Shown: in pieces, positions 1,150 through 43,163 of the stretch
How positions within the stretch are numbered: position 1 is the first letter of the stretch
How the letters are laid out: the number at the start of each line of letters is the position of its first letter
NCBI GenBank assembly: GCA_000091205.1
Contig: AP006491.2
Direction: 5' to 3' (one strand)
DNA from: Cyanidioschyzon merolae
Taxonomy: Eukaryota
DNA length: 64,000 nt
Notes under the pieces: generated by a model
The model's database searches: none
What the model was told of the DNA's origin: nothing
Seen by the model: only the letters and a program-made list of their open reading frames with translations
Translations under genes and position numbers: made by a program

Positions 1150-3350
1150 TAATTCCAGAGGACTAGGAAAAGAAGTGGAAACGAAATGGGGATGTGCTAC
1201 GACGAACGCTGCAGTAGTTTCGTGTCTATGTCGCTATGGTTGTGGAATCCTGTCGTCTCCAACATATTAATGTTCCGTACGACTGAACGCTCCAAGATGC
1301 AATCAGAAACCACGTTGTCTCGCTCTCCAGGAATATTTGTTACTCTCCTTTAGAACTGACGCATTTGGTGATCGAGCTCCATCGCGACGTAACGCACATC
1401 GCAAAAGTGATCTTTCCGGAACACTTTTTCAAAACAGAGTTTCATCTACCACCTGAATGCTTGCAATGGGGACGCATCGCGGGGAAACTAGCGGGCGGAT
1501 GCCTACGTCAAAATTTACGACAAGTACCGCATCAACGGTGCTGGACACAGGAGTGACGCAGATATTTACGAATACAGGGCAATTAGGTGCCTCAAGAATG
1601 TGAGGAACCATAGGATCCTCATCCTCGATTGTATCATGATACGCGTTGTCATTGTGCTGCACCCGGGCCTGTTTTGCGAAGGGATGCTGGCAATCATCGA
1701 TGGTATGAAGAACGATCGCCAGCATGAACAGGAGATCATATTTGTCGACAAGAGAACATCACACAGGAGAAGAAATAGGTATTCTGTTATCCGCGCAAGT
1801 ATTCAAAAGCGTCGTTCGGTCTCGGGACTTGTCAACCCAAGAGAAAAACCTGTCATGTATGGAAAATATGAAGAGAGATGTTCCTTCCTCATCTTGCCCT
1901 ACTTCATGGTTTTTGGATCGAGATCTCGAACGCAGGGCCGAAATGGAGCTGAGTATGGATACAATGGAGTATTGGAGAAATGGCACTGAAGAACTCCTCC
2001 AGTTGCGCTTTATTCGACCGGTTTTGCGAATTCCAGTCACCTGTTTTGATTTTTGACTTTAGAGTTCTTTTCGCCTTCATGGAAGAGGTTTATCCAGTGC
2101 CCGATTGAAGCGACAGAGACGTAACCGGCGAAGACCGGGACACGTACTAGATGCGGAAATTCGAGTTCAAGCGTGCAAAACCGGCGAATAAAAGGTAATT
2201 ATGGGGGCCATCGATAACGATCGGGTATACATATATGTACATTTTCAGCGGTTGCAGGTGCTTCGTCCCATCCCGTCTTCGTTACCGCCCTCGCCGAAGC
2301 ACGGAAACAGGAAGGCCGGCCATGGGATATATAATCCCCACGAGGACGACTTCGTCGTCGGCCTCAAACCCTGGATTACTGACTTCATTACCATCGTTGT
2401 AACAAGCGTTAGGTACATAATGTACTGAATGTAACTTACGTCGGAATGACAGGCGTCTTTTGAGGTTCTAGAGATCGACGTTCTACCCAGAAGCGGGAAT
2501 CGTGAATACGAGGAAGGAAATTGAGACTTGGGATGCAGAAGTGGAAGAGCATCTCGAAGTTGTGAGCGAGGTGAAGAGCCGAGGAGCGGATTTTCAGGCT
2601 TTTCAAGATTTCATGGATGTTCGTTTTGCTCATTGGGATGCGCTGTGGAAGGAGTATACAAACCCCCGGTGGGCTTTTCTACGTTCGAATCTATACTGTG
2701 GGAAGCCGCATGCATTCGCCGACTTTTTCAATGAGTTGAGCTCCTTGAAGGAGAATGAAAGTTTGAGGCTCGTAGTAGCATATTGAGCATGGAGCTGGGC
2801 GTCAAAAAAGGGGACTACGCGAGCTCCAGCGACAAGAACATTCAAAGAGTGTGCACGGCGTCTCTTTACGGTACCTGTAGATGAATTTGGAGCTTCGTAT
2901 ACACACCACGAGCTGGGGTGTACATTCCAGAGGGGCGAGATGCAAAAGTGCCAACGGAACCCTGAGGAAATAGCAAACTACGGACCGCTGACGGAAGAGC
3001 AAATGGAAAGGAGCGCAAAAGTTCATGGACTCCTTGCATTAGTAGGTACAACGAACGATGGCGAGAAACGGATGGAGTTCGTGAACCGAGGCTTTAACGC
3101 CGCTATCAGTATCAGTAGATGTGCGGTGCTGGAGAAGAGACCTGCAAACTAGACAAGAGACAACTTTGTTGGACAACCTCCCAAAGTCGAACTATATGAG
3201 AGAAAGTTGGAAGCAGTAGTGGGTGGCCGGTCGAAAACGGCGGGGAGGCGTCTGCACATCAGCTGGAGACGTTATGTCTCGGGCGCCGGTGGCCACTACT
3301 GTACACGGCCGGCGTCGTTCGACTTAGTACGGCGTTTCGCCGTGTACGCT
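1150..3350 (+). mobile_element. Copy D of the TnpB/Fanzor-like repeated element; degenerate, 5' portion diverged
   Basis: Nucleotide and protein similarity to copies A-C across the whole unit. RDVTHIAKV at 1365-1556 matches RDVTHIETVEIP of the other copies. GKWAI...DRKHE and VDKKTSRKRKNEASVIRA blocks are at 1600-1989. A RuvC-I remnant HEDDFVVGLKPW has lost the Asp. The [11 protein letters not shown] and LVVAY block is at 2502-2786. The zinc-finger and RuvC-III remnant (EFVNRGFNAAISI) is at 2940-3152. A conserved 3' tail runs 3200-3350 with its stop codon mutated, so the ORF reads through. Confidence 0.6.
1365..3283 (+). pseudogene. TnpB/Fanzor-like nuclease pseudogene (copy D); multiple frameshifts and stops, catalytic Asp codons of RuvC-I and RuvC-III mutated
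   Basis: Fragments lie in three frames. VDPG has become LKPW and RDFNAAINI has become RGFNAAISI. The terminal stop is lost. Confidence 0.55.
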
Positions 3351-3447
3351 TCGCGAACCAGATCATCAGGAAACTTCAGGGCGCCGCGCTTAACTCGAAG
3401 TGCGCCATACCTTCGGACTTGCTCGGAACATCCGATGCGGATGAAGC

Positions 3448-5349: not shown

Positions 5350-5782
5350 GTGCAGTAATGCAAAGACAACACGAGCAACCAAGGTTACCTCGGTTGCGCT
5401 TCAAGGCGCCTCAGCGTCTACCGTACCAAAGACTGCAACGGAAACCGGGAGCAATGAAGGAATGAATTCCGTTGAGCGATCAACTTGCGACATAGATGTA
5501 CAGAACGTACAAGAGCAATCTGGGTGTCGGACACGTCTCCTTCATCGAGCGGGGAGGCGTCTCGCGCAGTGCACGCATCGCTCTCGGTGAGCGTATACCT
5601 GGGAAATCAGGCAGTCAACTGACACGATGCGTACGCCGTTGAAGCGAAACGCGATCCTGATCAGTAGGGTGTTGTTGAACCGGAAAAAGTTGGATTTCAA
5701 TTCAGGTCGTAGCCAAGTACAGTTTTTCACTTCGTATTTGTTTCAACCTTCAAACAAGTCTAGACAAGTGTTTTTTCGCAGT

Positions 5783-5790
5783 ATATAACA
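5783..5790 (+). promoter_or_regulatory. TATA-like box (TATATAAC) about 210 bp upstream of the element ATG
   Basis: The context cgcagtatataacagaagcgtt is conserved in copy B at 15154-15161 as catataac. It is degraded in copy C. Confidence 0.35.
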
Positions 5791-5998
5791 GAAGCGTTCA
5801 AAGAGCGTTCTTTTTCAAAAAAAAACCTAAAAAAGGAAAGCTTTGAGAAAGCAAGCTGACGATCCTGGAGGGCTAGGGTCGCCGGCCGCTAGAGACAAAC
5901 AAAAAGCAGTGCCGAGTCCAGAAGAAAAGGAAGAGAAGAAGAACCGAAAGCGGGAGGCCCTACGTCGGAGGCGGCAAGAAACATGACTGTAGAACGAG

Positions 5999-8193
5999 AT
6001 GGAGGTGAAAACCTTTCTTCTTGGACATATCAAGGATCCCTACAGGGAAAAGTTGCGAGAAACTATCGAAAAACGTGTCGACTCGTACTCCAAGAGTATT
6101 GCCAAGGCGTCGTCAGGACTGATGCATATGGCGAGGGAGATGTATCGCGACGTAACGCACATCGAAACGGTCGAGATTCCAGACGAGCTTTTCGACAAGA
6201 CCTTTATTCGTCACTTGATGCTTGGCGCAGAGAAAGCGCCGAGGGAAAATGTGCTAGTGCATGCCCTCCACGAAAAACATCCCTTTTAGAGCTTCGACGG
6301 TACTCGATACACAATTGACTGGTGCATTTACACATACGGAGCGATGAAGTACATCACGAACCTGAAGAACCATTTGACTATGAACCTCGAACGCTTCATG
6401 ATACGCGCCGTGTTTGCGCTGTACCCTGGCATCGCTCGCAAAGGAAAATGGGCGATTACCAATGGCGTCACGAACGATCGCAAGCATGAAGATGCTATCG
6501 AGCTCGTCGACAACAAGACATCACGTAAGCGAAAGAATGAAGCTTCTGTAATCCGTGCGGCCATACACGAGTACCGTACAGTCTTGGGGTTGGCAAATCC
6601 GACAGACAAGATATCAGAGTTGAAAAAATATAAGGAATGGTACTATCGCCTCGTCCTGCGCTATTTTGTGTTTCTGGACCGAGAACTCGAACGCAAGGCA
6701 GAGGCGAGGCTGAGTGAGGAAAAAAATGAAGAGTGGGAGAGACGGAAGGCTTTCCTAATGGGTAAGCGCTTCAACGTCGTTCCAACGTGCAAGATCAAGT
6801 GACATTTGTGACTATCGACTCTAGAATCCTTCACGCCATCATGAAGGAGATCAGTCCGGAGTTCAGTGTCAGCAAGGAGAAGTTCTCCGGTGAAAACCGG
6901 GAGAGGTACTGGAAAAATATCTTCGATTTCAAACGCTTGAGAGTGAGCAAGGAAACGTTGTTCACCGGGATGTTTGAAACCGATGGAGTAGCCTAGTGTG
7001 TACACTATCGGCGGTTCAAGAAAGATCGTCCTGGTCCGCCGTCGGCTGTGCCCGTGACGAAGGATGAAGAAAAGAATGAGGCGGATCCTGCGACGCAGGA
7101 GGTGGAGGAGAACGAACTTATCTTTGACGCGGCGAATCATGAAGATGAGGAGGAGGCGGATCCTGTGACGCAGGAGGTGGAGGAGAACGACCTTGTCGTT
7201 GACGTGGCGAAGCATGAAGGAAAGAAGGAGGCGGATCCTACAATGCAGAAAGTGCAGGAGAACGACTTTGTCGTTGGTGTGGACCCTGGAAATACGAATA
7301 TCATAACCATCGCAGCACCCAAGCGCGCGGAAGATGGTGCTGATGGTAACTTGCGTCGGAAAGACATGCGTCTTTTGAGGTTCTCAAGAGCTAGATATTA
7401 CTGAGAATCCGGTGTAATGAATGCAAGGAAGAAAACCGAGAAATGGAATTCAGGAATGAAAGATCACCTAAAAGCTTTGAGCGAGGTGACGAGCCGAGGA
7501 ACCGACTTTGAAACTTTTCGGAAATTCATGGAAGATCGGTTTGCGCATTGGGATGCGCTGTGGGAGGAGTATACCATGCCCCGGTGGGCTTGTTTGCGTA
7601 TGAATTTGTATTGTGGGAAGCAGCGGGCGTTCGCCAACTTCTTCAATCAGTTGAGCGCCTTGAAGGAGGACCAGAGTCAGAGGCTTGTAGTAGCGTATGG
7701 GGCAGGCCGCTGGAAGACCCAAAAAGGAACTATGCCACCTCCAACGACAAGAACGCACAAGGAGTGCGCACAACGTCTCGTTACGATACCTGTAGACGAG
7801 TTCCGAACATCCTATACACACCATGAACTGGGATGTACACTTCAGAAAGTGGAGATGGAAAAGTGTTAGCGGAGCCCTGAAGACATAGCAAAGTACGGTC
7901 CTTTGACGGAAGAGGAAACGGAAAGGAGACCGAAAGTTCGAGGGCTACTCGCATAAGTGAATACAACTAACGGGAAGAAACCGATGGAACTCGTGAACCG
8001 GGACTTAAATGCCGCTATCAATATCCGAAAATGTGCGATGCTGGAGACGAGACCTCCAGAATGGACAAGAGAGAACTTTGTTGGACAACCTCTTGAAGTC
8101 GAACTATATGAGAGAAAGTTTGAAGCAGTAGTCGGTGGCCGGTCCAAAAAGACGGGTAGGCGTCTGCACGTCAGTTGGAGACGTCTTGTCTAG
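5999..8193 (+). pseudogene. TnpB/Fanzor-like RNA-guided nuclease homolog, copy A (RuvC-I, TS/zinc-finger block and RuvC-III present; several premature stops)
   Basis: MEVKTF...HEKHPF is followed by a stop. In-frame TGA codons occur at SRARYY*ESG (7399) and EMEKC*R (7867) where copy C has sense codons. [17 protein letters not shown] is at 7260-7330. [17 protein letters not shown] is near 7790. VNRDLNAAINIRK is near 8000. Confidence 0.75.
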
Positions 8194-8280
8194 GGCGGCC
8201 CGGACGCCACTACTGTACACGGTCGGCTTCGTTCGAGTTCAGAACGACGTTTGGCTGTGGTGTTGAATGTCGAGCGCCGA
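8194..8280 (+). other. Conserved structured 3' non-coding tail of the element; candidate fRNA/omegaRNA scaffold
   Basis: The tail is conserved in all four copies immediately after the nuclease stop. Its sequence is gtxgtgggtxgccggtcgaaaaagacxgggaggcgtctgcacgtcagxtggagacgtxxtgtctagggcg...gccactactgtacacggccxgcgtcgttcgactt. It contains a GCGTCT...AGACGC hairpin. Homology between copies ends about 40 nt past cgttcgactt. Confidence 0.4.
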
Positions 8281-10780: not shown

Positions 10781-12451
10781 ATGGAAATTTCTGATCGAGT
10801 CTTGGGAGTTTTCCAGTAAAATTGGCCATCGCAGATTGATAGATAGACTGTAGAGTCGGAAATCGTGTTTACATTTCATCGAAGCGCAAATTGCTGGGGC
10901 AGGCATGTATCAGCAGAGGCCCTTTTTGCGAGTACGGGAGGTAGGTGCTTTCCTGATGCGAGGCCGAGATCTCGAGTCCAAAGTGATCCGCTGATGCTTG
11001 CTTTTCCAGAGGTAGAGACTCCCTTTGCCGGAACTGGTCGTGATTTGTACCCACAACCGGTACGGAAGGCACGTCAGTGAAGAGATTCGCTACGACTATA
11101 CGCGGTATCATACGATTATGCTGCGGAGATCTCGGATACGAGAGCCGAAATACAACACGTGGCGCTGATAAAAACAACCCGCTTGATTGCATGCGACTTG
11201 TTGGACATTCGGGAACAAGGCGGTTCATTTTGGAACGCCCATGCCAGCATACCTTCTTTGTTTATGTTTGTTATTCTCGCTGGTATTCGCGAATCGACCG
11301 TGTCGCATAGATTGGAAATGAGCCGTGGAAAGAGTACATGCTGTTATCATCGGACAACGTCATACGAGATTACAAGTGAAACACAGTGATTCTAGGGTCA
11401 TCAAACGGATGAACGAGTTTTTCGTTGTACTTATCTTGACCCTCCTACACCCAAAACTAAACACAGAAATATCGCCTACAAGACTGTGTCCGGGTTCATC
11501 CTTTTCTTTGCATGCGACCTCGAAGAGAGACTACAATCACCTACAGGGTGTGAATGGTCCACATCGTTGATTCGGACAGCGATCAAGGGACACAGACGGA
11601 CAGAAGTAAGGCATTATTTATTGCAGACCGCCACGCTCCGAACAGGGCAAAATCGAATTCATACTCAAACGCACGCGTATCTCTCGGGAGAAAGAGGTAT
11701 GGATCTCGAATGGTGAAGTTCTAGTCAAGAGAAATACTATTCTTGAATATGGGTACTCGGAGGTTAAGCGTAAACCCCTGATCGTAAAAGAGACAGCGCG
11801 CAACCTGACAACATCGGTCTTACCAGTTTCCAAGTACATCGTGTGCTGGGAATCGCGGAACTTGCAGCATAACTCAATGACACATGTTCCTTCCGAGTAC
11901 TTCGCAATGCCTCCTTCACAAAACCATAGAACCCGATCGTCGATGACGTCGGTCTCCATCACATAGAAGCGGACGGAAAATACGCAGCTGATATTGGCAG
12001 CTGTTGCTATTTGGTCCTTCCCATTCTATCTGGACAAAATCAGCAACTGGGATCTTCTCTGCAGTCAGACGATGATCGTGTATACACAGATCACTTAGAG
12101 AGTTGTTCGAGTTCGTGAAATTGAACTTCTTTGATAAAACCTTCCTCGACATATCGGTGACCTACTTTACCAGCTCATAGCCACCGTCATCTTCCTCGTA
12201 CATATGAAGGAGGAGGAAGAAAGGCGAGCGCCAAACTGTAGGCGTGCTCGCGACGGCAAGACTGGATTGATTTACTAGAAGAAGTAACTTTCGTCGCACG
12301 GTCCATCCCGCACAAACGACTCCTTTTGGAAACAAATGCATCCACAGTAAGCTGGCCACTGCCAAGCACTCCTTCGGTGTGGATGAAAAACGGTGTAACG
12401 GGAAGGATGAGAAGCAACGGGAAAGAAAGGAAGAGAATCCTCCAGGAAGAC

Positions 12452-13660
12452 GACCAAGGAGGACTTGGGGCAAAAGCTGTCGGAGCGGAAACATCTTTCA
12501 GGAACCATCGTCAAGGCCTCCGTCCTACAAATTACCATCAGGAATAATCTCCCACACAACGAAATGCTCAACATCGTTCCCGATCGCGTGGCTTCCGTCT
12601 CGACGCAAGGTAAACCCAGTTTCCCGCTCCACGATGCATGTCGCCGAGCAGGTGTTCGTACCAGTCTCGGACGCAGAGCTGCTAGCAGCCGGGATTCCTC
12701 GGGAGCTTTTCGATCTCGGCTTTGTGCCATAACACAATGGATGCTCGGGACGGAAGACGCAGTGCGGTCCGAGTACAGGATCAGGGAGATACGCGCACAC
12801 ACACACATTACCCAGACTTGGTTGACGCTTCACTGCACAATGTTGACGATCGGAACATCTGCACTGCAGGCGGCCATAACACTATCAAACCGACCACTGC
12901 AATCAAGTCCATACGCCTGCCAAATGACGAGCGCTCCATGCAGCGCACCCTGTAGGCGTTCTATTCTCACGCTGGCGGCCCCGGTGAGTTGGTACTGACA
13001 CCAAAAAAGAATCTTCGCCTCTGCGCATACACGAGCGTCCATATCGCCCAGGCGGACAATCCGTGGCACGAATCCATGCGACAGTGGTGGTGCTGCCAAA
13101 AGATTCCATTCGACGGAGGCAGGTCTCTTGCATTCACCAACTTGTCCAATGCACTGAAAAGATAAGTGACCGAAAAGCCGTTTTGTTTTCCGGTGGTAAC
13201 CCGCGTCGCTGGACGTTCTGTGGCGAGCCATGGAGACGCCCATGTCCCTTCGACGAACGCACGCCGCAAGTGCATTGCTCCATGCCGAACGAATCCCATC
13301 GATGCATCCAGGGCGCCATCCAGGTATGTTGAGCACGGGCGCGCATGCACGAAGCTACAGAAGAAGGGCTTGAAATACATCCAGATGAACGAGATGGCGT
13401 GCGTCTCGCTGACTTGACGGAGATACGGATGCCTCGATCGGCATCCGAAAAGGACCCCTGCGATTCGGGAGCGTCCATCGTTTCTTTTTTTCTGCCGGAG
13501 GATATTTCCAGTTGATCTATTGACGACGCAGTGCGCCGTTGTTCGGCAGAGCGGAATGCTTCTGATCCAAAGAAATCAATGCCAAAGATACAACGCATTT
13601 GATTCCGGTCTGGAGAAATGCACTGGTATTGTATGAGCTGCAACCCAGGAGGTCTTGAGC
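12452..13660. repeat. Dispersed repeat, copy 1 of 2 (about 1.2 kb; second copy at 47486-48700, direct orientation, roughly 97 percent identical by eye)
   Basis: The ORF-track proteins are near-identical, 12465 MGQKLSERKHLSG... and 47509 MGQKLSERKHLSG.... The nucleotide match runs from cgaccaaggaggacttgg to tgtatgagctgcaacccag. An internal (CA)n is present. No recognisable domain. Confidence 0.8.
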
Positions 13661-14967
13661 GCCGTACGTTTGCACTGGAAGTAATGCTTCCAGGCAAAAA
13701 GTAGAAGATATTGCTGTCCTATGGTTCGCTATTATTGACTAGTAAGTAAGAGCAGTACGGCTTCATTTGATCCAAAAGTGAAATCGACCACCGATAGGAT
13801 TGTGACAAGCGTCAATTGAGACGAAGAGCGCTCCTATAGCACGATAGACTCTATGACAGTTGCTACATAACAAACACGGATGCTCCTGCATTCAGCGTAT
13901 ATGTCGTGCAACTCCATGCTTCAATGTGTCCAGTCATGGTCGGCCGTTTGCGAGCGTGACAGTCCACGTCCACTCAGAGAAGCAGTTCTCCTCGAGAGTC
14001 AACGTAGGCACAGCGTTGGGGTCCACCTGATAGTAGCGTCTCACAACTGATACCAGCGTGATTAGGTGGCTTAACGGCACGATACGTTTATCCTAAAAAA
14101 TAAAACATCCCAGCAATACGACAGTCAGTGCATTGCTTTCTTCGGGAAGACGACTCGTCTATTGTTAGGCAACGTTGCGGTACGACACGCATCTCACCGG
14201 ACACGTAGGAGAAGGCGTATATCAGCAAGAGGGATCCTACTCGTCCCCCAGTATCCATTCGCATTCCAGAATGCTATCGGAAAGAAGGAACCGACGAGCG
14301 CCGCCGATCACACTGCTGGAGTATCACAGGGGCATATCATACTAGGTGTCCCTATTACGGCAATAAGCTCCTGAGCAAACCTTCTGCAACCATAACACAA
14401 ATTCTGAAATGCTCTCCCTATTTTGGATGACGTCCGAAGGCTCTATCCGTAACGTCCAGGATGGCACCTGTGCCTGAAACTCGCCCTGCTCCACCTACTG
14501 AGCGCACGTGGACCTGAAGGCGCACAGGAAAGAGCACCATACGCATCTGCTGCCTACATTGCCGAGTGAATCGTAAGACACCACGACCAAGAAAAGCGTT
14601 TATACACAGTACGCACCAACGCATGCCATCCCCCTCTGATCCGTCTGGAGTTGCCGGACGCACGCTTCACAGTCGCAACTAGCCGGCTGTCCCATGAGCG
14701 AGGTTCAGCTACAGATCCACCCATAACAGATTCGATGTCCCTGCTCGCCTCCTAACGTCCGACACTGCTCCCAGAAGCGAAGCGCCTCATTCGCACAAAC
14801 GCGTGCTTAAACGGCAACGTCCCTACCGTACGCAAGAACCGCGCCCGTACAACCCGCATCACTTGAACTGAAGCAGCGATACCTACAGTTCCCGATGCGT
14901 ACAGCGCTCGTCACGCCCGGGGCGCTTGGCGATGTGGCTTGCAGGGCAGAGAGCGTGGGCGAGCGCG

Positions 14968-17535
14968 CCTGGGAAATCGCGCAGTCAACTGACACGATGC
15001 GCGTGCCGCCGATGAAGGGAAACGTTGTCGTGATCAGTTACGTGTTGTTCTGCTGTAAACATCGGATTTCTGTTGAGGCCATAGCAAAATACAGTCTTTC
15101 GGTTCGGTTTTGTTTCAAACTTCAACCAAGTCTAGTAAAGTGCTTTCTCGCAGCATATAACAGAAGCGTTCATTGAGGGTTCTTTAAAAAACGAAAAACG
15201 GAAAGCTATGAAAAACCAGTCGACGATCCTGGAGGGCTAGGGTCGCCAGCCGCTAGAGACAAACAAAAAGCAGTGCCGAGTCCAGAAGAAAAGGAAGAAA
15301 AGAAGAACCGAAAGCGGGAGGCCCTACGTCGGAGGCGGCAAGAAACATGACTGTAGAACGAGATGGAGGTGAAAACCTTTCTTCTTGGACGTATAAAGGA
15401 TCCCTACAGGGAAAAGTTGCGAGAATCTATCGAAAAACGTGTCGACTCGTACTCCAAGAGTATTGTCAATGCGTCGTCAGGACTGATGCATATGGCGAGG
15501 GAGATGTATCGCGACGTAACGCACATCGAAACGGTCGAGATTCCAGACGAGTTTTTCGACAAGACGTTTATTCGTCACTTGATGCTTGGCACACAGAATG
15601 CACGGATGGAAAATGAGCGAATGCATGCCCTCCACGAAAAACATCCCTTTTACAGCTTCAATGGTACTCGATACAAGGGTGACCGGGATGTTTACGACTA
15701 TGGGGCGATGAAGTACCTCACGAACCTGAAGAACCATTTGACAGAGAACCTCGAACGTTCCATGATACGCGCCGTGGTTGCACTCCACCCGGGCCTGTCT
15801 CGCCAAGGAAAATGGGCGATTATCATAGGCATCACCAAAGATCGCAAGCATGAAGATGAGATCGAACTCGTCGACAAGAAGACATCACGTAAGAGAAAGA
15901 ATGAAGCTTCTGACATCCGTGCGGCCATACAAGAGTACCGTGCAGTCTTGGGGTTGGCAAATACGACAGACAAGATATCAGAGTTGAAAAAAGATAAGGA
16001 ATGATACTATCGCCTCATCCTGCGCTATTTTGTGTTTCTGGACCGAGAACTCGAACGCAAGGCAGAGGCGAGGCTGAGTGGGGAAAAAATGAAGAGTGGG
16101 AGAGACGGAAGCCTTTCCTAATGGGTAAGCGCTTCGACGTGGTTCCAATGTGCAAGATCAAGTCACATTTGTGACTATCGTCTCCGGCGTCCTTTACGGC
16201 ATCATGAAGGAGATCAGTCCGGAGTTCAGCGTTAACAGGGAGGAATTCACCTGTGAAAACCGGGAGACGTACTGGAAGAATATCCTCAATTTCAAACGTC
16301 TCAAAGTCAGCGCGAAAAAGAAATTCACTGGGATGCTCGAAACCGATGGAGCAACCATTTGTGTACACTATCGGCGGTTAAAGAAAGATCGTCCAGTCCC
16401 GCCCTCGGCTGAGTTCTCTGCGAAACATGAAGAAAACAAAGAAGCGAATCCTGAGACGCACAAATTGCAGGATGACGACCTTGTCGTTGGCGCGGTGAGG
16501 CATGAAGAATAGAAGGAGGCAGATCTTGCGACGCAGGAGGTGCAGGATAACGAACTTGTCGTTCCTGCGGACCCGGGGAATACAAATATCATAACCATCG
16601 TTGTGCCCAAGCATGCGGAAGATGGTACTGACGGCAACTTACGTCAGAAAGACACGCGTGTGTTGAGATTCTCGAGAGCGAGAAATTATCGAGAATCCGG
16701 TATAATGAATGCGAGGAAGAAAATCGAGACTTGGGATGCAGGAATGAAGGATCAAATGGAAGCTTTGAGCGAGTTGACTAGCCGACGAACGGACGTTGAA
16801 GCTTTTCGGAAATTCATGGAAGTTCGCATTGCGCATTGGGATGCGCGGTGGGAGGAGTATACAAAGCCCCGGTGGGCTCGTCTGCGTATGAATTTCTACT
16901 GTGGCAATCAGCGGGCGTTCGCGAATTTTTTTTAATAAGTTGAGCGCCTTGAAGGAGAATGAAAGTCAGAGGCTCGTAGTAGCGTACGGAGCAGGACGTT
17001 GGGCGTCGAGAAAAGGGACTACACCAGCTCCAACGACAAGGGTGTACAAAGAGTTCGCAAGGCATTTCGTTACGATACCTGTATTTGAGTTCCGAACATC
17101 GTATACACACCATGAGCTGGGTTGTATACTCCAGAGAGTCGAGATGGAAAAGTGCCTGCGGAGTCCTGAAGATATACAAAAGCACGTACCGCTGACGGAG
17201 GTGCAACTGGAAAGGAGGGCGAAAGTGCGAGGGCCTCTCGCATTAGTAAGTACAGCCAATGATGGCAAGAAACGTATGGAGTGTGTGAACCCAGATTTTA
17301 ATGCCGCTATCAATACAGGAAAAAGTGCGGTGCTGGAGAAAAGATCTCCAGAGTGGACAAGAGGGAACTTTATTGGACAACCTCTCAAAGTTGCACTATA
17401 TAAGAAGAAGTTGTAAGCAGTACTAGGTGACCGGTCCAAAAAGAAGGGGTGGCGTCTGCCCTTACTTGGAGATGTTTCGTCTAGGGCGCGGTTACAGCCA
17501 CTACTCTACAGCTGGCGACAGCGTTTTTTCTTTTG
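14968..17535 (+). mobile_element. Copy B of the TnpB/Fanzor-like repeated element
   Basis: Same 5' boundary and leader, with the TATA-like box at 15154. The N-terminal ORF 15363-16004 is uninterrupted over 213 aa. The conserved 3' tail is more diverged. Confidence 0.8.
15363..17416 (+). pseudogene. TnpB/Fanzor-like nuclease homolog, copy B (nonsense at KDKE*, frameshifts, RuvC-III NRD changed to NPD)
   Basis: TGA replaces TGG at about 16003. RuvC-I is [16 protein letters not shown]. The TS block is IPVFEFRTSYTHHELGC. RuvC-III is VNPDFNAAINTGK. Confidence 0.7.
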
Positions 17536-19491
17536 AAAGGTGTTTCTTTCCAGGGGTGCGTCCGCCAAGCGACACTATCCAACTGGAAGCCCGCAAGCAC
17601 CAGCAACGTCCTCTGTAGAGCGCAATCACGAAACCTGCACAGGATCACACGTGGGCGGTACCAGCTTCGCTGTCAATGCTCCTCGAGAAAATGCTCTGCA
17701 GCGGGATATAACGCGCTGCCTGGCCGAACTGTAGGCCGAAGCTCACCAGCCCGTTTCCGTGACTATAATATATCGTATCGAGGTTTCGCGTCGTAGCGCT
17801 TTGTATACCGACGGTTAAATAGAGTGTGGAGGCAAACGACGAACGCTTATCTCGCACGTACGCAGCACAAGTTAAACTAACTCAGACGATACCGCTTGCA
17901 GACGATTCGACGGCGCCTGGCTCATCACTGTGCAATTCGTCGTGGCAGACCCCTCTGACGCTCGGAGTACTTTGGTCGGCAAAGATATTGGCTAAAGAGG
18001 TTTGTGTACTTGCTGCTGGGAACTCCTTCTGTTCCAGGCCTGGTACGAGCGCCAACTCCGGGAGATCGTTTACGAGCATCCAACTTTGCCGGACGTTGGT
18101 GATGCGGGCGGGCGGTGGTAGCAAGTCGAGGCGCTAGCGCCGCGCTTCTAAGGCGTCACGAGCGAGCAAGCAGTGAAGCTTCGAAGTATACGGTGCCACG
18201 TACGGCAAAGAGCGTTGTCCCCCACGTAATCCTGACCGTTTATCTTACGCAAACGCGTCGGTAACCATTCCTTGCTTTCCCAACATTGAATCTATCAACT
18301 GTTTCACCTGTGCGCACTACTTGTTCACGAACTTAGAGTGAAATCCGCCTCGCACGAAGCCATTCGGATGAACCATGCTACCTGTGCTCCGCCAGCGATG
18401 AGGACGCGGGTCTGCGCTCATCCGTCGTGTTTTGTACTAGCTGAAGGACTTCAATAGTACCAGTGCATGAGAGCATTGACAGCAAGTCTGAGAATACGTC
18501 GCCACCGCAGTGCAAGCACGGTACAAGCACACACGCACATGAAACCGCTACTATATCCATCTCTCTCGGAGCAAGCATCATCGGCCGAGTCACTATTTCG
18601 ATCGATCTAATAGTTCACATCTTCTACGGTTTCCATTCCACACAGGATTCACATTTCGATATTCTGTTTGCTGCTTATTTTAGCAACGCAACAGAACAAG
18701 TCGCTGTCGCAGAATAGCCCCAATCTGACCACTGCGCATCTGGTTCGGTCGCTGACGTTCCCTCACGGACGCAAAGCGGAACTATGGCAACAATGTGTAT
18801 CGAATGCTACAAAGAAAGCGGATATACACGGAGAGCAGCTCGAAAGGTGCGAAACGAAGCATACAGACTGCGAGTTTTTCCAAGCTCCATCATGAATGTG
18901 GCATTTGCTAAAAGAACCTCCCCAATACCGTGACATTGTAAACGGAGCGCACCGTTCCAGTACAGAGCAATTTCCATTCCCGTGTTCACCGAAATGGAAC
19001 GATGCCTGGCGGATCCACTCCGCTGCAAACAGTATTTGCGGAAGGCCAAAGCTTCAGCGATAAGGTGCACTTTGAAACGCGCCTGAAGCAGATGTAGTTC
19101 TGTGTACGTGTAATTGATGCGCTGCGTGTATTAGCACCAATAGTGCTGCTCGAAAAGCCCTTGATAAGAAGGTAACGGGCAAAACTTTTCGTTCCAAGTC
19201 ACTCGACAGCTGGCGTGTATTGCGAGGTGAGGTCACTCACCGGTTCAGAAGTAATAGTACGCGAGCGTGTGTTTCAGTGCTGCTGCCGCTTATTCCACCA
19301 GATGACTCGAGACCTGCTACATAAAAGTCATGAGTTCCGTGCATCAGCCACGTCCACACTGCGGCTGAATTGCCCAGAGTGCACTTAACACCATCGAGGA
19401 GCGCTTTTGCAGAGCGTCCTGCCTCCCATGCATGGATCCCTTGACTGGGGCGTTCTGAGCACCTTCAGCCGATAGGCTATTCTTGAAAAGA

Positions 19492-22400: not shown

Positions 22401-23553
22401 CGCACCCACAGATATCACCCAACAGGCAGGTGTAGACGAGTCCGTCAGGGCAGGAAGCCGTCGTTGTTGGTGAACTCGTGCTCGTCGTTGTTGGTGAACT
22501 CGTGCTCGTCGTTGTTGGTGAACTCGTGCTCGTCGTTGTTGGTGAACTCGTGCTCGTCGGCTTTTGGGTGGGCCTTGTGGTGCTTGTAGCGATCGAAGTT
22601 GGTTTCGATGTGGTGGATATGTTTGATACTGTAGTTGCGCTCAATACAGGACTTCTTACAGGTATCAACGTCGAGACTACGGTGATTAATGCTGTTGCAG
22701 ATGTTGAGACAACAGCGGTCCTTGAAGGCGGTACAGTAATTGTTTGCACCACCGTTGGTTCATGACTTGTTACAACCGGTGTTGGCGGTAGCGTCCGATG
22801 TACTGTTTGTGGCGGAGTTTGGGCCATATGGCTCTTCGTCGCCTCTGGAAATGGAGTCTGTTGAATTGGACGGGGCGTCTGAATAGGGAAAACCTCTACA
22901 CTACACGTTTCCGAGAGCAGCTTGCACTCATATGTGCAAAACTCGCCTAGAACTATGGAAGTCGACGTAGTGGATTCTTCACCATACGAAGACGTCCACT
23001 TTCTGCTTGTTTTCCAATCTAACTCATTCTGTCGTTGAACATTCCCTTTTTCATATACCGCTGTAGAAGACTTTGGACATATTTGCAGAGCCTCAAACTT
23101 TTGCACGCAAACCTTGCATGTGTTTTGGTATTTGTACTCCACACAAACTTCTACTGATTTGAAAACACATTCCTTCCTACATTTTTGAATATTTTTCTGC
23201 GGTGCTGCGTCTTCGAAAGTTGTGTCTGAGGTCCAACGACGTCTCCAAGTCACTTTTCCGTTCCAGGGACCACCATACTCGGGACTCTTTGTCTCAGGCG
23301 CTGCTGTTGTACAGACGATATTTTCTTTCGCACAGACCAATATATTTTCATACGCTGCGCACGTCTTTACTAAGCTACACGGCCCGACCACGGTCTCCGG
23401 CTCGCAGAACTGCCATCTTAGCCCGGAGCTCGTAAGCGATCTACTCTCTCCATCAGTTTTGATCGGTGAGCTCGCCTCTGTGGAGACGGTCAACAGTATC
23501 GCTTGTGCGATCGTAATACAGAGAATCACAGATAAAGTCCGCGTGAACTTCAT
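19492..23553 (-). CDS. Secreted mucin-like Ser/Thr/Pro-rich cell-surface glycoprotein with tandem Cys-rich repeats
   Basis: A 1353-aa ORF with a true ATG. The N-terminal signal peptide is MKFTRTLSVILCITIAQAILLTVSTEA. A Cys-rich N-terminal module follows. About five tandem units of roughly 150 aa each carry two 8-Cys modules (CPDGLVYTCLLGDICGCVTTSGSCPGNLVKLCVGDTCVCVEAG), separated by SPTTTSTS runs. The C-terminus is a Ser/Gly-rich 20-aa periodic tail. Confidence 0.8.
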   Translation of the reverse strand: MKFTRTLSVILCITIAQAILLTVSTEASSPIKTDGESRSLTSSGLRWQFCEPETVVGPCSLVKTCAAYENILVCAKENIVCTTAAPETKSPEYGGPWNGKVTWRRRWTSDTTFEDAAPQKNIQKCRKECVFKSVEVCVEYKYQNTCKVCVQKFEALQICPKSSTAVYEKGNVQRQNELDWKTSRKWTSSYGEESTTSTSIVLGEFCTYECKLLSETCSVEVFPIQTPRPIQQTPFPEATKSHMAQTPPQTVHRTLPPTPVVTSHEPTVVQTITVPPSRTAVVSTSATALITVVSTLIPVRSPVLSATTVSNISTTSKPTSIATSTTRPTQKPTSTSSPTTTSTSSPTTTSTSSPTTTSTSSPTTTASCPDGLVYTCLLGDICGCVTTSGSCPGNLVKLCVGDTCVCVEAGTPTPSPSFSQPTSTSTSTSTASSTSVPTCPGGVVYTCLLGDICGCVTTTGSCSGNLAKVCLGDLCVCVEAGTPTPSPTSPTTTSTSSPTTTSTSSPTTTSTSSPTTTASCPDGLVYTCLLGDICGCVTTSGSCPGNLVKLCVGDTCVCVEAGTPTPSPSFSQPTSTSTSTSTASSTSVPTCPGGVVYTCLLGDICGCVTTTGSCSGNLAKVCLGDLCVCVEAGTPTPSPTSPTTTSTSSPTTTSTSSPTTTSTSSPTTTSTSSPTTTASCPDGLVYTCLLGDICGCVTTSGSCPGNLVKLCVGDTCVCVEAGTPTPSPSFSQPTSTSTSTSTASSTSVPTCPGGVVYTCLLGDICGCVTTTGSCSGNLAKVCLGDLCVCVEAGTPTPSPTSPTTTSTSSPTTTSTSSPTTTASCPDGLVYTCLLGDICGCVTTSGSCPGNLVKLCVGDTCVCVEAGTPTPSPSFSQPTSTSTSTSTASSTSVPTCPGGVVYTCLLGGICGCVTTTGSCSGNLAKVCLGDLCVCVEAGTPTPSPTSPTTTSTSSPTTTSTSSPTTTSTSSPTTTASCPDGLVYTCLLGDICGCVTTSGSCPGNLVKLCVGDTCVCVEAGTPTPSPSFSQPTSTSTSTSTASSTSVPTCPGGVVYTCLLGGICGCVTTTGSCSGNLAKVCLGDLCVCVQAGTSTSNGTASSGVSEAFFAEPERNSTHSAESAPRATATVTPAVVHPTPSPYIAKMNAMSMTPSSSQASSLSVSTLPVATTATLPPPFTPVITTSTSGGSFLDNVEPGGERNSHSSTLGAVAPAMRTTISPPTFSSLGSTPRPGTGIDAPTTSSSGPDRIIEQTSAIPVSSSSSRAGNLGSGTSDTSSGSNSGTPGSGTSYTGSGSSSGTSGSGTSDNGSGSSSGTSGSGTSGSGGLSSTNNGMNMTAFGRWFYVVPRIQHVQNII
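19560..19800. repeat. 60-bp periodic repeat encoding the Ser/Gly-rich C-terminal tail of the mucin-like protein
   Basis: The 60-bp unit ggtgcctgaaccagaagttccgctgctgctaccactaccgttgtcactggtgcctgaaccagaagttcc is repeated. Confidence 0.7.
20180..22560. repeat. Coding tandem array, period 432-480 bp, about 5 units, with a nested 24-bp minisatellite (ggtgaactcgtgctcgtcgttgtt, 2-4 copies per unit)
   Basis: Identical antisense ORFs recur at 20417, 20873, 21305, 21785 and 22241. Unit length varies with the 24-bp copy number. Confidence 0.9.
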
Positions 23554-26500: not shown

Positions 26501-27689
26501 AGCTTCAAGAATGAGTCCTCGTACCCCGGAATCTCGAGCGTAACCAGTTCCATTGTCTTCAGAGTCGAAGTCCAGCCCCCAAATGAGGTAAAGTAGGTGT
26601 CGGAGTCCCCTAAAACACGCCCTGATTGTCTCCTTCTTCGAGACCTCCTGAGACCTCTAACGCAGGCAAAGGTAGTGCGGGTGCGCCCCAGGCACACAGC
26701 AGCACTGCTCTCTACACAACTTGGAATAAGCTGTTTTACGTGGCACCGCACAACAGCACGTCACTCGTGTTCAACAAAATCAGAGCGGCGTCGCGCAGAG
26801 AAAAAGGAAAGAGAATGTACTGATGATGTAGTGTGTGTGGTACTTGTGCGCAAATGTCTCGATTATCCTGCCTGCACAGACGTGTCCCATGAGACGCAGG
26901 TACGGTGCGACCCGCCGCAGCGAGAAGCCACACCACGGCGCCGACGGTGGCCGCAGCAGAAAGTGTCGTTGCGCTGCACTCCGACAGCGCTGCTGAGCCC
27001 CGTGTGAGGACTCGCGAGGCCGCGGCGGGTGCCCCTGGACCACCCTCTCGAGCCAACGAGTGTCCCATAACGCCAGCAACGGCAACTCCAACGTTGCCAA
27101 AACCGTTGTTGCTGCGGGACGCACCCGTGCCTACAAGGAACAACGTTTGCAGTCGCGCGCGATTGGCGCGCCTTGGTAGGAACGTTCAAAGGAGTCGGAT
27201 GCCGGCAAGTGATTCCCATTTCGATGACAAAACGTTTCCATGAACCATGGATCCCAGTTTGCGGAATGGGTATTCGTAATCGAAAAAAAAGGTTCATCAT
27301 GCGGCAACTACCTGCATGTTCCATGAACCATATATCCTCTCGGATACACTGGTCGTTTCGTGCGCTCTATCGTGTGCCAGTTGTCTGCCTGGCTGCACTC
27401 GCAAAAGCAGTCATACCGCTGGAGCAGATGCAGCACGGAGACAGAACGGCTATGACATACCACTCAGGGCATCGACTCGATGCTTGGTTCATCCGAGACC
27501 GATGCGGAGTACATAATCATTCTGGGAGCCCGCGACAGCGCGATGCGACATACTCAGAGTGCCCTGTGACCAGGGCGTCGCTCCACACGCAGCATCATGC
27601 TCCTAGTCCGAGTTGCGTTGCGGACGAGCTGCGTAGGTCTCGTCAAAACACCAGCCACTGGAGGAAGCCCGAAGCACTAGCCAGGCAGA

Positions 27690-28200
27690 CTCACACGGCT
27701 CGTGGGACCTTCCGCCTAAGCGGTAAACGTACAAAGATACGGGAACTATTCCCCCCTTCAACGCTTACTATCAAGGTCGAGCGAAACGATTGTCGAGTTG
27801 CGAGTCAGTGGTTAGTTTCCGTTCTTTCGGCAACGTGTCGTGATTCGTTATCATTCTCGGAGCCTGCAAGCTGTACAGACAGACCAATTGCCTTCAGCAG
27901 CGCGAAGCGATATACAAGGAGTCATCTTCGACCAGTGCGACGCACACTTGCAGCATACCCGCTCCTGGTCCCAGAAAAATCTGTTTTTCGGACGAGTAGC
28001 TCAGATCTCAACGCAGCATCTGCCAATGCAAAGTCCCACGGAGCGCAAGCCCCGCAGGCTCGTCCGGCTCGCGGGACCTTCTGCCTGAAAGGTAGGCTTT
28101 CTAACATACGGAAATACTTTTCCCCTTTCAACGTTTGTTGTAGAGAGGGAACGAAATCGTTATATCGTTGCTGGTGAATTGTGAGTCTCTGTTCTTTGTT
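27690..28200. repeat. Two copies of a roughly 140-bp segment about 360 bp apart, upstream of element copy C
   Basis: The segment at 27700-27830 is cggctcgtgggaccttccgcctaagcggtaaacg...gttagtttccgttctttcgg. The segment at 28060-28200 is cggctcgcgggaccttctgcctgaaaggtaggc...gagtctctgttctttgtt. Confidence 0.6.
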
Positions 28201-28619
28201 TTAAATAGCGCTGTCGATTTGCGCACCTGGGAGATCTGGTAAGCACGTGGCACGACTCAAATGCCGCACTTCAAGGAATACGAAATCGTGGCAGCATCTG
28301 TTCTTGTTGCTGTACCGTACAAGTTGTATTTGCGTTGCAGTCACACAAAAGTATAATTTTTCAGTTCATTCATGTTTCATACCTCAAACAAATGTATTCT
28401 AGTGTTTTTGTGCAGTACATAGCAGAAGCGTTTAGTGAGCCTTCTTTCCCAAAGAAACTAAAAGAGGGAAGTTATGAAATTGCGACTCGACGATCCTGGA
28501 GGCCCAAGGTCGCCAGCTGCTAGAAAAAAACAAAAAACAGTGCCGAGTCCAGAAGAAAAGGAAGAGAAAAAGAAGTAAAAAGGGAAGGCCCGACGCCAAT
28601 GCTTGCAAGAAAGACAACT

Positions 28620-30898
28620 GTACGACGAGAAGATGGTGAAAACTTTCCTTCTTAGACATATCATGGATCCCTACAGGGAAAGTTGCGAGAAGCTATCAAA
28701 AAACGTATCGAGTCGTACTCCTTGAGGATTATGAAGGTTTTCTCAGAAGTAATGCATTTGGTGAAGGAGATGTGTCGCGACGTGACGCACATGGAAACGG
28801 TCGAGATTCCGGACAAGTTTTTCGATACGACCTTTATTCGTCACCGGATGCTTGGTACAGAGGAAGCGCGGAAGAAAACGAGCAGGTTCTTGAACTGCAC
28901 GAAAAACATCCTTTTTACAGCTTTGAGGGTACTCGATACAAGGGTGACCGGGATATTTACATGTACGCGGCGATGAAGTACATCACAAACCTGAGGAACA
29001 ATTTGACAATGAACCCGGAACGTTTCATGATCCGCGCAGTGGTTGCACTCTATACGGCGCCTATCTCACAATGGAAAATGGGCAATTATCAAAGGTACCA
29101 CGAAAGGTCGCAAACGTGAAGACGAGATCGAACTCGTCGACAAGAAGACATCACGTAAGAGAAAGAATGAAGCTTCTGTTATCCGTGCGGCCATACACGA
29201 GAACCGTGCAGTCTTGGGGTTGGCAAATCCGACAGACAAGATATCAGAGTTAAAAAAGATAAGGAAAGATACTATCGCCTCGTGCTGCGCTATTTTGTGT
29301 TTCTGGACCGAGAACTCGGACGCAAGGCGGAGATGAAGCTGAGTGAGGAGAAAAATGAAGAGTGGGAGAGACGGAAGGCTGTCCTAATGGGTAAGCGTTT
29401 CGACGTGGTTCCAATGTGCAAGATCAAGTCACATTTGTGACTATCGACTCTAGAATCCTTCACGCCATCATGAAGGAGATCAGTCCGGAGTTCAGCGTCA
29501 ACAGGGAGGAATACTCCAGTGAAAACCAGGAGACGTACTGGAAGAATATCTTCAATTTCAAACGCCTCAAAGTGAGCAAACAAAAGGTATTCACTGGGTT
29601 GAACGAAACCGATGGAGTAGCCTTGTCTATACACTATCGGCGGTTGAAGAAAGAACGGCCAGTCCCGCCCTCGGCTGCGCCCGTGACGAAGGAAGAAAAA
29701 AACAAAAAGAGGATCCTGCGACGCAGGTGGTGGAGGATAACGAGTTTGTGGTTGACGTGGCGAAGGATAGGGATGAGAAGGAGGCGGATTCTGCGACGCA
29801 GGAGGTGCAAGATAATGACCTTGTCGTCGACGCTGCGAGGCATGAAGATGAGAAGAAGGCGGATCCTGTGATGCAGGAGGTGGAGGGGAACGACCTTGTC
29901 GTTCGCGCGACGAAGCATCAAGAAAACGAGAAGGCGGGTTCTGAGAAGAGGAGGTGCAGGATAACGACTTTGTCGTTGGCGTGGACCCTGGGAATACGAA
30001 TATCATAACCATCGCTGCTCCCAAGCGTGCGGAAGATGGTACTGACGGCAACTTACGTCAGAAAGACATGCGTGTTTTGAGGTTCTCGAGAGCGAGATAC
30101 TATCGAGAATCCGGTATAATGAATGCGAGGAAGAAAATCGAGACTTGGAATTCAGGAATGAAAGAGCACCTGGAAGCTATGAGCGAGTTGACGAGCCCCG
30201 GAGCGGATTATGAAGCTTTTCGGAAATTCATGGATGTTCGTGTTGCCCATTGGGATGCAGTGTGGGAGGAGTATAAAAAGCCCCGGTGCGCTCGTTTGCG
30301 AATGAATCTATACGGTGGGAAGCAGCGGGCGCTCGCGAACTTTTTCATTCAGTTGAGTGCCCTCAAAGAGGATCAAAGTCAGAGGCTAGTAGTATCGTAT
30401 GGGGCAGGGCGCTGGGCGTCGAAGAAAGGGACTACGCCAGCTCCTACGACGAGGGTGTACAAATATTGTGCATGGCGTTTCGTTATGATACCTGTAGACG
30501 AGTTCCGAACGTCATATGCACACCATGAACTGGGATGTACACTTCAGAGAGTGGAGATAGAAAAGTGTCAACGGAGCCCTGAGGAAATCGCAAAGTACGG
30601 ACCGCTAACAGAAGAGCCAATGGAAGGGAGGGCGAAAGTTCGAGGACTACTCGCACTGGTGAGCACAAAGAACGATGGCAAGAAACGTATGGAATTCGTG
30701 AACCGAGACTTTCACGCCGCTATCAATATCAGGAGATATGCGGTGCTGGAGAACAAACCTCCAGAGTGGACAAGAAAAACCTTTGTTGGACAACCCCTCA
30801 AAGTCGAACTATATGAGAAAAAGTTTGAAGCAGTCGTGGGTAGCCGGTCGAAAAAGACAGGGAGGCGTCTGCACGTCACCTGGAGACGCAATGTCTAG
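28620..30898 (+). pseudogene. Full-length TnpB/Fanzor-like gene copy C with 1-nt indels in the acidic-repeat region
   Basis: The frame is lost at [14 protein letters not shown], where copy A reads [15 protein letters not shown]. It is lost again at [14 protein letters not shown] before [13 protein letters not shown]. Confidence 0.6.
29954..30898 (+). CDS. TnpB/Fanzor-like RuvC nuclease core ORF (314 aa, uninterrupted in this copy); the upstream part of the same protein is frameshifted in the acidic repeat
   Basis: RuvC-I is [49 protein letters not shown] and [28 protein letters not shown] align to the TnpB wedge, YKae and V.P.YTSq.C blocks. RuvC-III is [17 protein letters not shown]. The C-terminal tail is basic. 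Confidence 0.7.
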
Positions 30899-31749
30899 GG
30901 CGATTTTCCCGCCACCGCTGTACACGGCCAGCGTCGTTCGACTTTCGAAAAGCGTTGTTGGTGTGTGCGTGCGAGCTCGCGGGCGCAATGAAAAGAAAAA
31001 CACAACAAAACGAACACGTCGCAAACTATTTATTCAAGAACAAGTATCTTAAAGCCCCACCAACCACGCCCGCCAGAGAGGTGTAATTTTTCCGGAGAAG
31101 CTCTGAAATTGGGTTAACAGGGGGTGTTTGGGCGACGGGGAAGGAAGCCCACGCCAGGGACCTTGACCGCAACGAACAGTGGGGCGGAGGCAGTAGCACC
31201 AGAAAATATGGATGAAAATTCTGAGCAGACATCCGCCCCTCCCGAAACAACGCTGCAGGTTCGGGCGCAAATCCTGGACCCATCCTCGAACTCAAGCTCA
31301 GGATTACCTCCTACCTTGTTCCCTACCTCAACTTTGGAAACAATCTAGGCGGATACTTTGGAAGACGGCTGGCAGCATGTTCGCGGTCGAAGCCGGAATA
31401 AGCGACTTGCCCGCCTATGTGTCTGGGGAGCGGATACGAAGCCGCTGAAAGGGTGGTTTGCAGAGTATTCCCAGTGGTTGAGGGGAGGTTAAAGCGTCGG
31501 GCAATAAAAAGGTCGCATTCGAATCGACCTTGACTAATGTACTTCTGATTCTACGCTAGCGCTGCGGCAGACACTCAATGAACGACTGGAATGCAGGAGG
31601 CGCTGGTGGCATGTACGCTCACACATACCGCGGAGGGTGCGTCTAAATCGACGGCGTATCTCTTGAGTACTGCAGCGCTACTCCAATTCCCTTACGCGCT
31701 ACGACTCAATAGGTTGCGCATCATGGAATGTTAGCGGGATCGCCTCGAA

Positions 31750-42700: not shown

Positions 42701-43163
42701 TAGACACGCATCTCGTGCGCCTGCATCGCTTCTTTTCAGCCAGCACTGGACACGCCGACGATCTCGTTGGGGGCACGCACGTGCGCAGACACGCAAATCG
42801 CGCTACCGAACACATTGGCGATTGCTCATTGGCGCGTGAAATCCGGTACGTCGCGAGGATTGCGCTTCGCAGATGATTCAAGTGTTTTTCTAGACTTGGA
42901 GCTTTCGGGTGCGTTGACTCCAAACCGTGAGGGCTCGCTCTGGTACTTTGATTGGCCTTTGGCGTAGTTGTAGTTGAGGGAGACTTGGACTGGCTAGGCG
43001 TTTTGGAGTTTCGAGGGGTGCACTGGCAACTGCGCGCACGCGTGGACTGCAGCAGTCCACGGCGTTTTCAACTTTTCAGAGCAGCCTTGGTGCTACACAC
43101 TGTGTCCGGTGGGTCGAAGGACGCTAGGGACTCGAACCATAGGAAAACGCTGCTGAAGAGTTT

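Follow-up and report, generated by a model that had tools for sequence, protein, structure and literature searches.

Fanzor1 nucleases of known structure comprise SpuFz1 (8gkh), PpFz1 (9cf0) and GtFz1 (9cer). The key residues of SpuFz1 are D383, N385, E541 and D606 (PMC10432273). RuvC-I of Fanzor1 carries a DPG motif (bioRxiv 10.1101/2023.08.09.552727), and the canonical RuvC-II glutamate is replaced by Gly or Pro, with the catalytic glutamate shifted downstream (PMC10530073). The closest described element is CMe-1A of Cyanidioschyzon merolae, whose consensus measures 3169 bp and which numbers about 150 copies, every one at about 80% identity to it (Bao & Jurka 2013, Mob DNA 4:12, PMC3627910). 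The family was described as old, without terminal inverted repeats (TIRs) or a call of target site duplications (TSD), and unclassified as a transposable element; some of its genomic copies are intact (PMC3627910). The CMe-1 protein is encoded by a single intron-less ORF of 734 aa, and the first 635 bp of the consensus correspond to a separate element, TE-N2_CMe (PMC3627910).

We analysed a window of 64,000 nucleotides of C. merolae (contig AP006491.2), where an earlier note, made from the sequence alone, had reported four co-oriented repeats encoding Fanzor-type nucleases. The four repeats are very probably old, inactivated copies of CMe-1A whose only gene is the intron-less Fanzor1 ORF. The Fanzor1 call is correct, and the element is not new, having been known since 2013; as the exact family and its consensus were already published, the high interest given to the repeats is not justified.

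CMe-1A copies in the window

We detected all four repeats (D, A, B and C, in order of position) on the + strand and within 30 kb of the window. An independent consensus built from 56 copies was 92–95% identical to the published CMe-1A consensus and restored one ORF, which reads the same as the published CMe-1 protein, except for one extra 25-aa repeat (about 760 aa versus 734 aa). The ancestral unit rebuilt from those 56 copies, in agreement with the published consensus, would have comprised a 5' non-coding region of about 0.3–0.9 kb that differed by subfamily, an ORF of 734–760 aa and a sharply bounded, hairpin-bearing 3' tail of about 60 nt.

The window copies were 74–87% identical to the published consensus over 2.5–2.9 kb, and their boundaries were set by that consensus together with a 3'-tail probe. 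Copy D (849..3337, +), the most decayed, aligned to consensus nt 673–3145 at 74% and was 75.5% identical to the published ORF. Copies A (5606..8252, +) and B (14961..17545, +) aligned to nt 672–3137 (84–87%) and nt 687–3167 (83–87%), respectively, each with 86% identity to the published ORF, and copy C (27837..30957, +) aligned to nt 277–3169 (82–87%). The start of copy C at nt 277 means that part of the TE-N2_CMe-like 5' region is included, and a solo TE-N2_CMe-like unit (27222..27827, +; 74% to consensus nt 1–636) lies immediately upstream of it. Copies A and B differ from the published CMe-1A in that another 5' region is joined at about consensus nt 672–687; in copy A, homology with other copies, of this different 5'-region subfamily, begins at 5522. 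Pairwise identity was 80–83% among A, B and C, and about 67–79% between D and these three. The window copies are the same element as CMe-1A, with which they have in common the ORF, the absence of TIRs, the TE-N2_CMe-like 5' region (copy C) and a divergence level of about 80%.

Thus the co-oriented copies first reported are real, although their limits shift against the consensus (e.g. D spans 849–3337 and not 1150–3350). That the family is multi-copy also stands (56 copies in our consensus; about 150 published), but its description as recently amplified does not, given the 74–87% identity to the consensus of a family described as old. We also considered RIP as the source of the divergence and rejected it, because transitions and transversions were about equal.

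Fanzor1 assignment and RuvC motifs

The CMe-1A protein begins with a basic N-terminus, contains 25-aa acidic repeats that vary in number and ends in a split RuvC domain. Single-sequence searches of Pfam, NCBIfam and PDB with the copy C ORF returned no match, nor did a PDB search with a profile built from close homologues alone. The profile built from the window core and its close homologues retrieved 1308 representatives, many of them 600–700 aa long, and a profile from 44 representatives matched PpFz1 (9cf0, E = 1.1e-17), SpuFz1 (8gkh, E = 1.8e-9) and GtFz1 (9cer, E = 5e-5); its significant PDB matches were Fanzor1 chains only. The same 44-sequence profile matched the window copies with E = 1e-50 to 1e-104. 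A structure model of copy C 29954–30898 (314 aa) reached pLDDT 87 and retrieved the TnpB/Cas12-type RuvC fold in structure searches; an AlphaFold model from a shallow alignment (pLDDT 39.6) was set aside. The TnpB/Cas12-type RuvC domain proposed from motifs is thus borne out by profile matches to solved structures and by structure searches, which place the nuclease in Fanzor1, and all the peptide motifs quoted earlier were found in the copy C ORF 29954–30898.

RuvC-I reads GVDPGNTN in copies A and C, ADPGNTN in B and NPG in D; in the clade alignment the D and G of the DPG motif are invariant and the P nearly so. The canonical RuvC-II glutamate position is occupied by Gly (LVVAYGAG) in A, B and C, and the shifted glutamate lies in PVDEFRTSY in the same three copies, aligned with LLDEYKTS of SpuFz1. 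RuvC-III (signature RD.NAA.NI) reads NRDLNAAINI in A and NPDFNAAINT in B, is also found in C, and has RG in D. In copy A the catalytic motifs are intact (VDPGNTN at 7270, VDEFRTSY at 7789 and NRDLNAAINI at 7993).

CMe-1A shares with SpuFz1, PpFz1 and GtFz1 both profile and fold matches, the DPG, the shifted RuvC-II glutamate in D-E-[FY]-x-T-S, the RuvC-III RD, a length of about 640–760 aa and a single-ORF multi-copy element, although sequence identity is just 11–20%. It differs from SpuFz1, which has 30-nt inverted repeats and a CCCC zinc finger (PMC10432273), in having neither. Between RuvC-II and RuvC-III we found no CxxC pair in CMe-1 or in 57 of 58 full-length relatives, in a place where the CCCC zinc finger is present in SpuFz1 and ISDra2 TnpB, and in many, not all, Fanzor1 members. 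Among the prokaryotic TnpB (ISDra2, 8h1j; ISFba1, 8iaz) and Cas12f proteins, TnpB1 keeps the canonical RuvC-II glutamate where CMe-1A has Gly; it is about 400 aa long and lies beside TnpA in IS200/605 or IS607, whereas the window is eukaryotic and without TnpA.

Element ends and mode of spread

At the 3' terminus of copy C, a stretch of 135 nt (30823..30957, +) takes in the ORF end, its stop codon and about 60 nt of tail in which inverted repeats are conserved; it has equivalents on the + strand in copies D (3206–3337), A (8118–8252) and B (17410–17545). This segment is a candidate for the omega-RNA and right-end region. The 3' terminus is conserved and sharp, has a subterminal hairpin and can form helices: in the consensus, 83% of the cells of the 3'-end helices were paired, against 30–58% in shifted registers. 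Covariation in a hand-drawn four-helix structure of the 3' end did not rise above shuffles, and RNAalifold on 57 3' ends predicted 3 pairs and no more. By homology with SpuFz1, PpFz1 and GtFz1, the omega-RNA bound by an active copy would be transcribed from the ORF's 3' end together with the element's right end, and the copy would then cut double-stranded DNA beside a transposon-adjacent motif (TAM). Such cutting would help the element to persist or spread, and separate machinery would move it.

Unlike the sharp 3' end, the 5' end varies from copy to copy or is truncated. A terminal inverted match was not found in the copies, and the statement that no transposon superfamily is recognisable from the ends agrees with the literature. 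The 5' junctions of the copies belong to several distinct flank groups and so gave no readable TSD or TAM. We rejected a "long form" 5' extension as the true left end; it is partly a paralogous block with a POR-like pseudogene and a solo 3' tail. A solo 96-nt 3' tail adjoins a full copy. Neighbouring copies are arranged head-to-tail (16 of 17 pairs co-oriented), often about one element length apart.

A rolling-circle or single-strand HUH-type transposon (Helitron-, IS91- or IS200/605-like) may instead lie behind the copies, which would be its cargo or its non-autonomous derivatives, with Fanzor1 as passenger or helper and the moving done by a Rep-type enzyme encoded elsewhere or lost. The lack of TIRs, reported also in PMC3627910, is in keeping with such a transposon, as are the hairpin-bearing 3' end, the uneven 5' ends, the solo tail beside a full copy and the co-orientation of neighbours. 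Chlamydomonas Helitrons, moreover, carry Fanzor1: the CRe-1 to CRe-3 elements also lack TIRs and are anchored at their 3' end, but they are expressed and classifiable as Helitrons, while CMe-1A has no recognisable Helitron termini (its ends differ from TC...CTRR). Also against an HUH-type origin, no Rep/HUH or helicase ORF was found within the window, some co-oriented pairs represent paralogous or redundant loci, and co-orientation can also come from segmental duplication. As for Replitrons as the possible source of mobility, proteins resembling them have not been detected in red algae (PMC10288648). On balance we regard an HUH-type origin as rather unlikely.

A broader proposal, which we put forward as quite a long shot, is that elements of the CMe-1A type, with Fanzor1 as their only gene, spread replicatively in a 3'-anchored, orientation-preserving way, and that this Fanzor1 clade of more than 1300 representatives works without the CCCC zinc finger. 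Copying could be rolling-circle-like, or could follow a Fanzor-guided cut beside an existing right end. Spread of this kind would explain why 3' ends are sharp and 5' ends vary or are truncated, why solo 3' tails occur and why neighbours stand head-to-tail.

That a single insertion was copied locally, by segmental or tandem duplication, rather than several having occurred separately, would fit the presence of all four copies on one strand within 30 kb. It would also fit a −1 frameshift at codon 321 common to A, B and C, stops at codons 48 and 50 common to A and B, and four paralogous blocks elsewhere with more than 1.2 kb of common flank. However, the four copies have dissimilar flanks, unrelated single-copy genes lie between the copies and the 5' regions vary among them. 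The codon-321 frameshift, moreover, falls in a T4 run and is present in just 6 of 33 copies, and slippage could therefore have produced it more than once. We consider local duplication improbable.

Coding decay, host genes and other relics

All four window copies of CMe-1A are pseudogenes. Counted against the published 734-aa ORF, the ORF-equivalent regions, all on the + strand, contain 13 premature stops and 11 frameshifts in D (1079–3281), 8 premature stops and 1 frameshift, at 6805, in A (5843–8193), 5 premature stops and about 7 frameshifts in B (15208–17484), and 1 premature stop and about 7 frameshifts in C (28474–30898), whose N-terminal two thirds are frameshifted. The sole intact frame is the C-terminal ORF of copy C (29954..30898, +; 314 aa), which covers the split RuvC domain. 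The claim that each repeat encodes a protein of about 770 aa therefore fails: there are 1–13 premature stops and 1–11 frameshifts per copy, and it is the 56-copy consensus that restores an ORF of about 760 aa. Neither the window nor 82 related metagenome loci yielded an intact ORF of full length, the longest being 629 aa. In A, B and C, codon position 3 carried about two times as many substitutions as position 2, with a nearly flat distribution in D; this bias in the sequence indicates past purifying selection on A, B and C. That bias and the 314-aa ORF retained in copy C would suit a functional multi-copy host family of domesticated Fanzor genes, an extremely improbable reading in view of the stops and frameshifts in every copy, the hundreds of fragmentary homologues and the roughly 150 described copies at about 80% to the consensus (PMC3627910).

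The practical value is small. The case does illustrate that inspecting raw sequence for motifs can rightly spot a Fanzor1 element, and it ties the window to a published family. The residual value lies in the biology of CMe-1A (how it transposes, its termini, its TAM and any omega-RNA) and in a clade without the zinc finger of characterised Fanzor1 enzymes. A heat-tolerant editor might be sought in an intact copy from a thermo-acidophilic alga, but the copies in the window are dead.

The host genes of the window (Utp14, Rrp40, WD40, a bicarbonate transporter and a copper amine oxidase) are eukaryotic, as had been noted. It also holds that no transposase ORF accompanies the repeats: none lies in or near the copies, and a search of the window for TnpA-like ORFs (Y1 HUH or serine recombinase) gave none. 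Finally, we identified a heavily degraded Fanzor1 relic with internal deletion, which belongs to another, more distant family (12432..13363, +) and is contained in a repeat unit at 12448–13669, and a second copy of it (47473..48393, +; repeat unit 47492–48717) that is 97.7% identical to the first.

Identity and state of the four repeats

Repeat search and self-BLAST recovered four repeats in the window, all on the + strand, as the earlier note had described. We aligned to the window the published consensus of CMe-1A (supplement of PMC3627910), a transposon family of Cyanidioschyzon merolae with ~150 copies, each ~80% identical to a consensus of ~3 kb (3169 bp) that encodes a single-exon protein of 734 aa, CMe-1 (Bao & Jurka 2013, PMC3627910). 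In left-to-right order, copy D (849–3314) aligned to consensus nt 673–3145 with 74% identity, copy A (5606–8220) to nt 672–3137 with 84–87%, copy B (14991–17540) to nt 687–3167 with 83–87%, and copy C (27837–30954) to nt 277–3169 with 82–87%. An independent consensus, built from 56 distinct copies (window and 80 metagenome loci), was 3191 nt long and 92–95% identical to it. This consensus yielded a single ORF of ~760 aa, the sole break being an alignment artefact in a 75-nt tandem-repeat region, and CMe-1 as published reads like this ORF. The repeats are thus CMe-1A, a family already known in the literature.

Copies A, B and C shared 80–83% pairwise identity, and copy D was ~67–79% identical to them. 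The recent amplification proposed in the earlier note did not hold: the family is old, the window copies being only 74–87% identical to the published consensus. Fungal-type RIP was ruled out as the source of divergence, since transitions and transversions were about equal. Nor does each copy encode a ~770-aa protein, as had been claimed, because translation of the homologous segments runs into stops and frame changes in every copy. Aligned globally with the published CMe-1 ORF, copy A has 8 premature stops and 1 frameshift, copy B 5 and ~7, copy C 1 and ~7, and copy D 13 and 11; the sole stretch still open is the C-terminal 314 codons of copy C (ORF 29954–30898). The four copies are pseudogenes. 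Substitutions at codon position 3 were about twice those at position 2 in A, B and C (copy D was nearly flat); therefore, part of the divergence arose under protein selection in source copies, in line with the published comment that this family has kept its coding capacity for an unusually long time (PMC3627910). The 75-nt tandem repeat within the ORF (6995–7350, 16433–16638 and 29698–29978) encodes 25-aa acidic repeats, whose number differs among copies.

Fanzor1 assignment and active-site motifs

Single-sequence searches of Pfam, NCBIfam and PDB gave no match. A word-indexed protein search found 254 close homologues (64–99% identity), all from JGI or ENA metagenomes and mostly fragments, and an exhaustive search at E <= 1e-3 with a core-region profile yielded 1308 representative proteins, many of them of 600–700 aa with the matched domain C-terminal. 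A second profile was built from 44 full-length relatives among these 1308, with no window sequence included. Its significant matches in PDB were Fanzor1 chains only: Parasitella parasitica Fz1 (9cf0, E = 1.1e-17), Spizellomyces punctatus Fz1 (8gkh, E = 1.8e-9) and Guillardia theta Fz1 (9cer, E = 5e-5). Against the window copies, this second profile gave E-values of 1e-50 to 1e-104. The Fanzor assignment of the earlier note is correct. Sub-threshold matches to Pfam PF07282 (Cas12f1-like TNB domain, earlier named OrfB_Zn_ribbon) were also obtained with 8 of the 44 relatives.

Fanzors carry a DPG motif in RuvC-I, Gly or Pro in place of the canonical RuvC-II glutamate, and a shifted glutamate immediately upstream of the zinc finger (PMC10530073; bioRxiv 10.1101/2023.08.09.552727); the active site of SpuFz1 is D383/N385/E541/D606 (PMC10432273). 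All the peptide motifs quoted in the earlier note were located in the open frame of copy C. Copies A and C have the same 10-residue RuvC-I reading with DPG kept, the canonical RuvC-II position reads LVVAYGAG or LVVSYGAG in A, B and C, and PVDEFRTSY is present in A and C, followed downstream by RuvC-III (NRDLNAAINI in A, or its counterpart in C). Copy B retains all three catalytic residues (ADPG, FEFRTSY, NPDFNAAINT), and two are gone in copy D (NPG, NRG). Whereas SpuFz1 and TnpB have a CCCC (CxxC...CxxC) zinc finger, CMe-1 and 57 of the 58 full-length relatives lack one in the interval from the shifted Glu to RuvC-III. Residues often conserved instead in this zinc-finger-less clade (P0122–P0269) are a His-His pair that follows DEFRT[ST] and the single Cys of RGLLWC.

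Element ends and mode of movement

CMe-1A has been described without TIRs, with no TSDs defined and no class assigned (PMC3627910), and we likewise found no terminal inverted repeats in the copies. The 3' end is sharp, conservation falling to background ~60–65 nt past the stop codon (52 copies). In the terminal region, inverted repeats straddle the stop codon (CAGTAGT...ACTACTG), and a hairpin, CGTCGTTCGA-CTT-TCGAACGGCG, lies at the terminus. Because Fanzor1 and TnpB omega-RNAs are encoded by the ORF 3' end and the right end (PMC10432273), this region is a tentative candidate for the omega-RNA. Its consensus helices were paired in 83% of cells, versus 30–58% in shifted registers, and showed no covariation above shuffles, as expected for neutrally decaying copies.

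The 5' ends are heterogeneous: several 5' regions fuse to a common body near consensus nt 670–830, and some further copies are more deeply truncated. Over its 5' 635 bp, CMe-1A shares 95% identity with TE-N2_CMe, a distinct element of ~70 copies (PMC3627910). A full unit matching this segment lies directly upstream of copy C (27222–27827, +), and fragments are found at 311–420 (+) and 34963–35169 (-). A solo 3' tail of 96 nt (L012:1234–1329, consensus nt 3073–3168) precedes a full copy by ~130 nt in one metagenome locus and recurs in paralogous blocks L019, L059 and L062; the whole block exists in four paralogous copies (~80–83% identity) and also holds a POR-like pseudogene (L059:2751–3830, - strand). 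Among adjacent pairs of 3' ends (window copies and loci L012, L015, L019, L021, L023, L050, L059, L062, L067 and L077), 16 out of 17 were co-oriented, often 3.1–3.9 kb apart (about one element length), though some loci are redundant or paralogous and the effective count is lower than 17. This spacing and orientation looks like a head-to-tail arrangement.

As to how the element moves, the strongest rival reading is mobilisation by a rolling-circle or single-strand system, favoured by the sharp hairpin-bearing 3' end, the variable 5' ends, the solo tail adjoining a full copy and the co-orientation of neighbours; however, a Rep-like gene was not seen and the termini are unlike those of Helitron. 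That the window copies are local duplicates of a single insertion is unlikely because their flanks differ, although A, B and C have a -1 frameshift in a T-run in common, which would be compatible with some common ancestry. Given their stops and frameshifts, the repeats are not a functional host gene family.

Window setting and other repeats

In agreement with the earlier note, no transposase ORF was found in or between the four CMe-1A copies, the intervening genes being ordinary host genes, and eukaryotic housekeeping genes are present. Window genes are intron-poor, and the window has a G+C of 50–60%. Together with the housekeeping genes and a protochlorophyllide-reductase-like gene beside a related copy, these traits fit the source indicated by the CMe-1A match, C. 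merolae or a very close relative. Positions 1–35000, which hold all four copies and one of two relics described below, have a G+C of 0.46–0.58 versus 0.52–0.62 in the gene-dense 35000–64000, and four copies in 30 kb compare with ~0.27 expected (~150 copies in ~16.5 Mb). The lower G+C and the density far above the genome average suggest that the left part of the window is a TE-rich region.

Two repeats of ~1.2 kb (12448–13669 and 47492–48717), 97.7% identical to each other, are both on the + strand like the CMe-1A copies. The family profile matched both in colinear N- and C-terminal parts (12432–13363 and 47473–48393, +; E = 5e-9 to 3e-4), and they are relics of a second Fanzor1, far more diverged, with heavy decay and internal deletions. 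A long ORF of 1353 aa (19492–23553, -), with no Pfam match, contains at least 5 tandem repeats at 20285–22545 (period 432–480 nt, 94–99% identical). Finally, tandem arrays with a period of ~66 nt and units 88–97% identical lie at 42069–42710 and 56259–56479, the latter inside a Utp14-like ORF (53191–56577, -).
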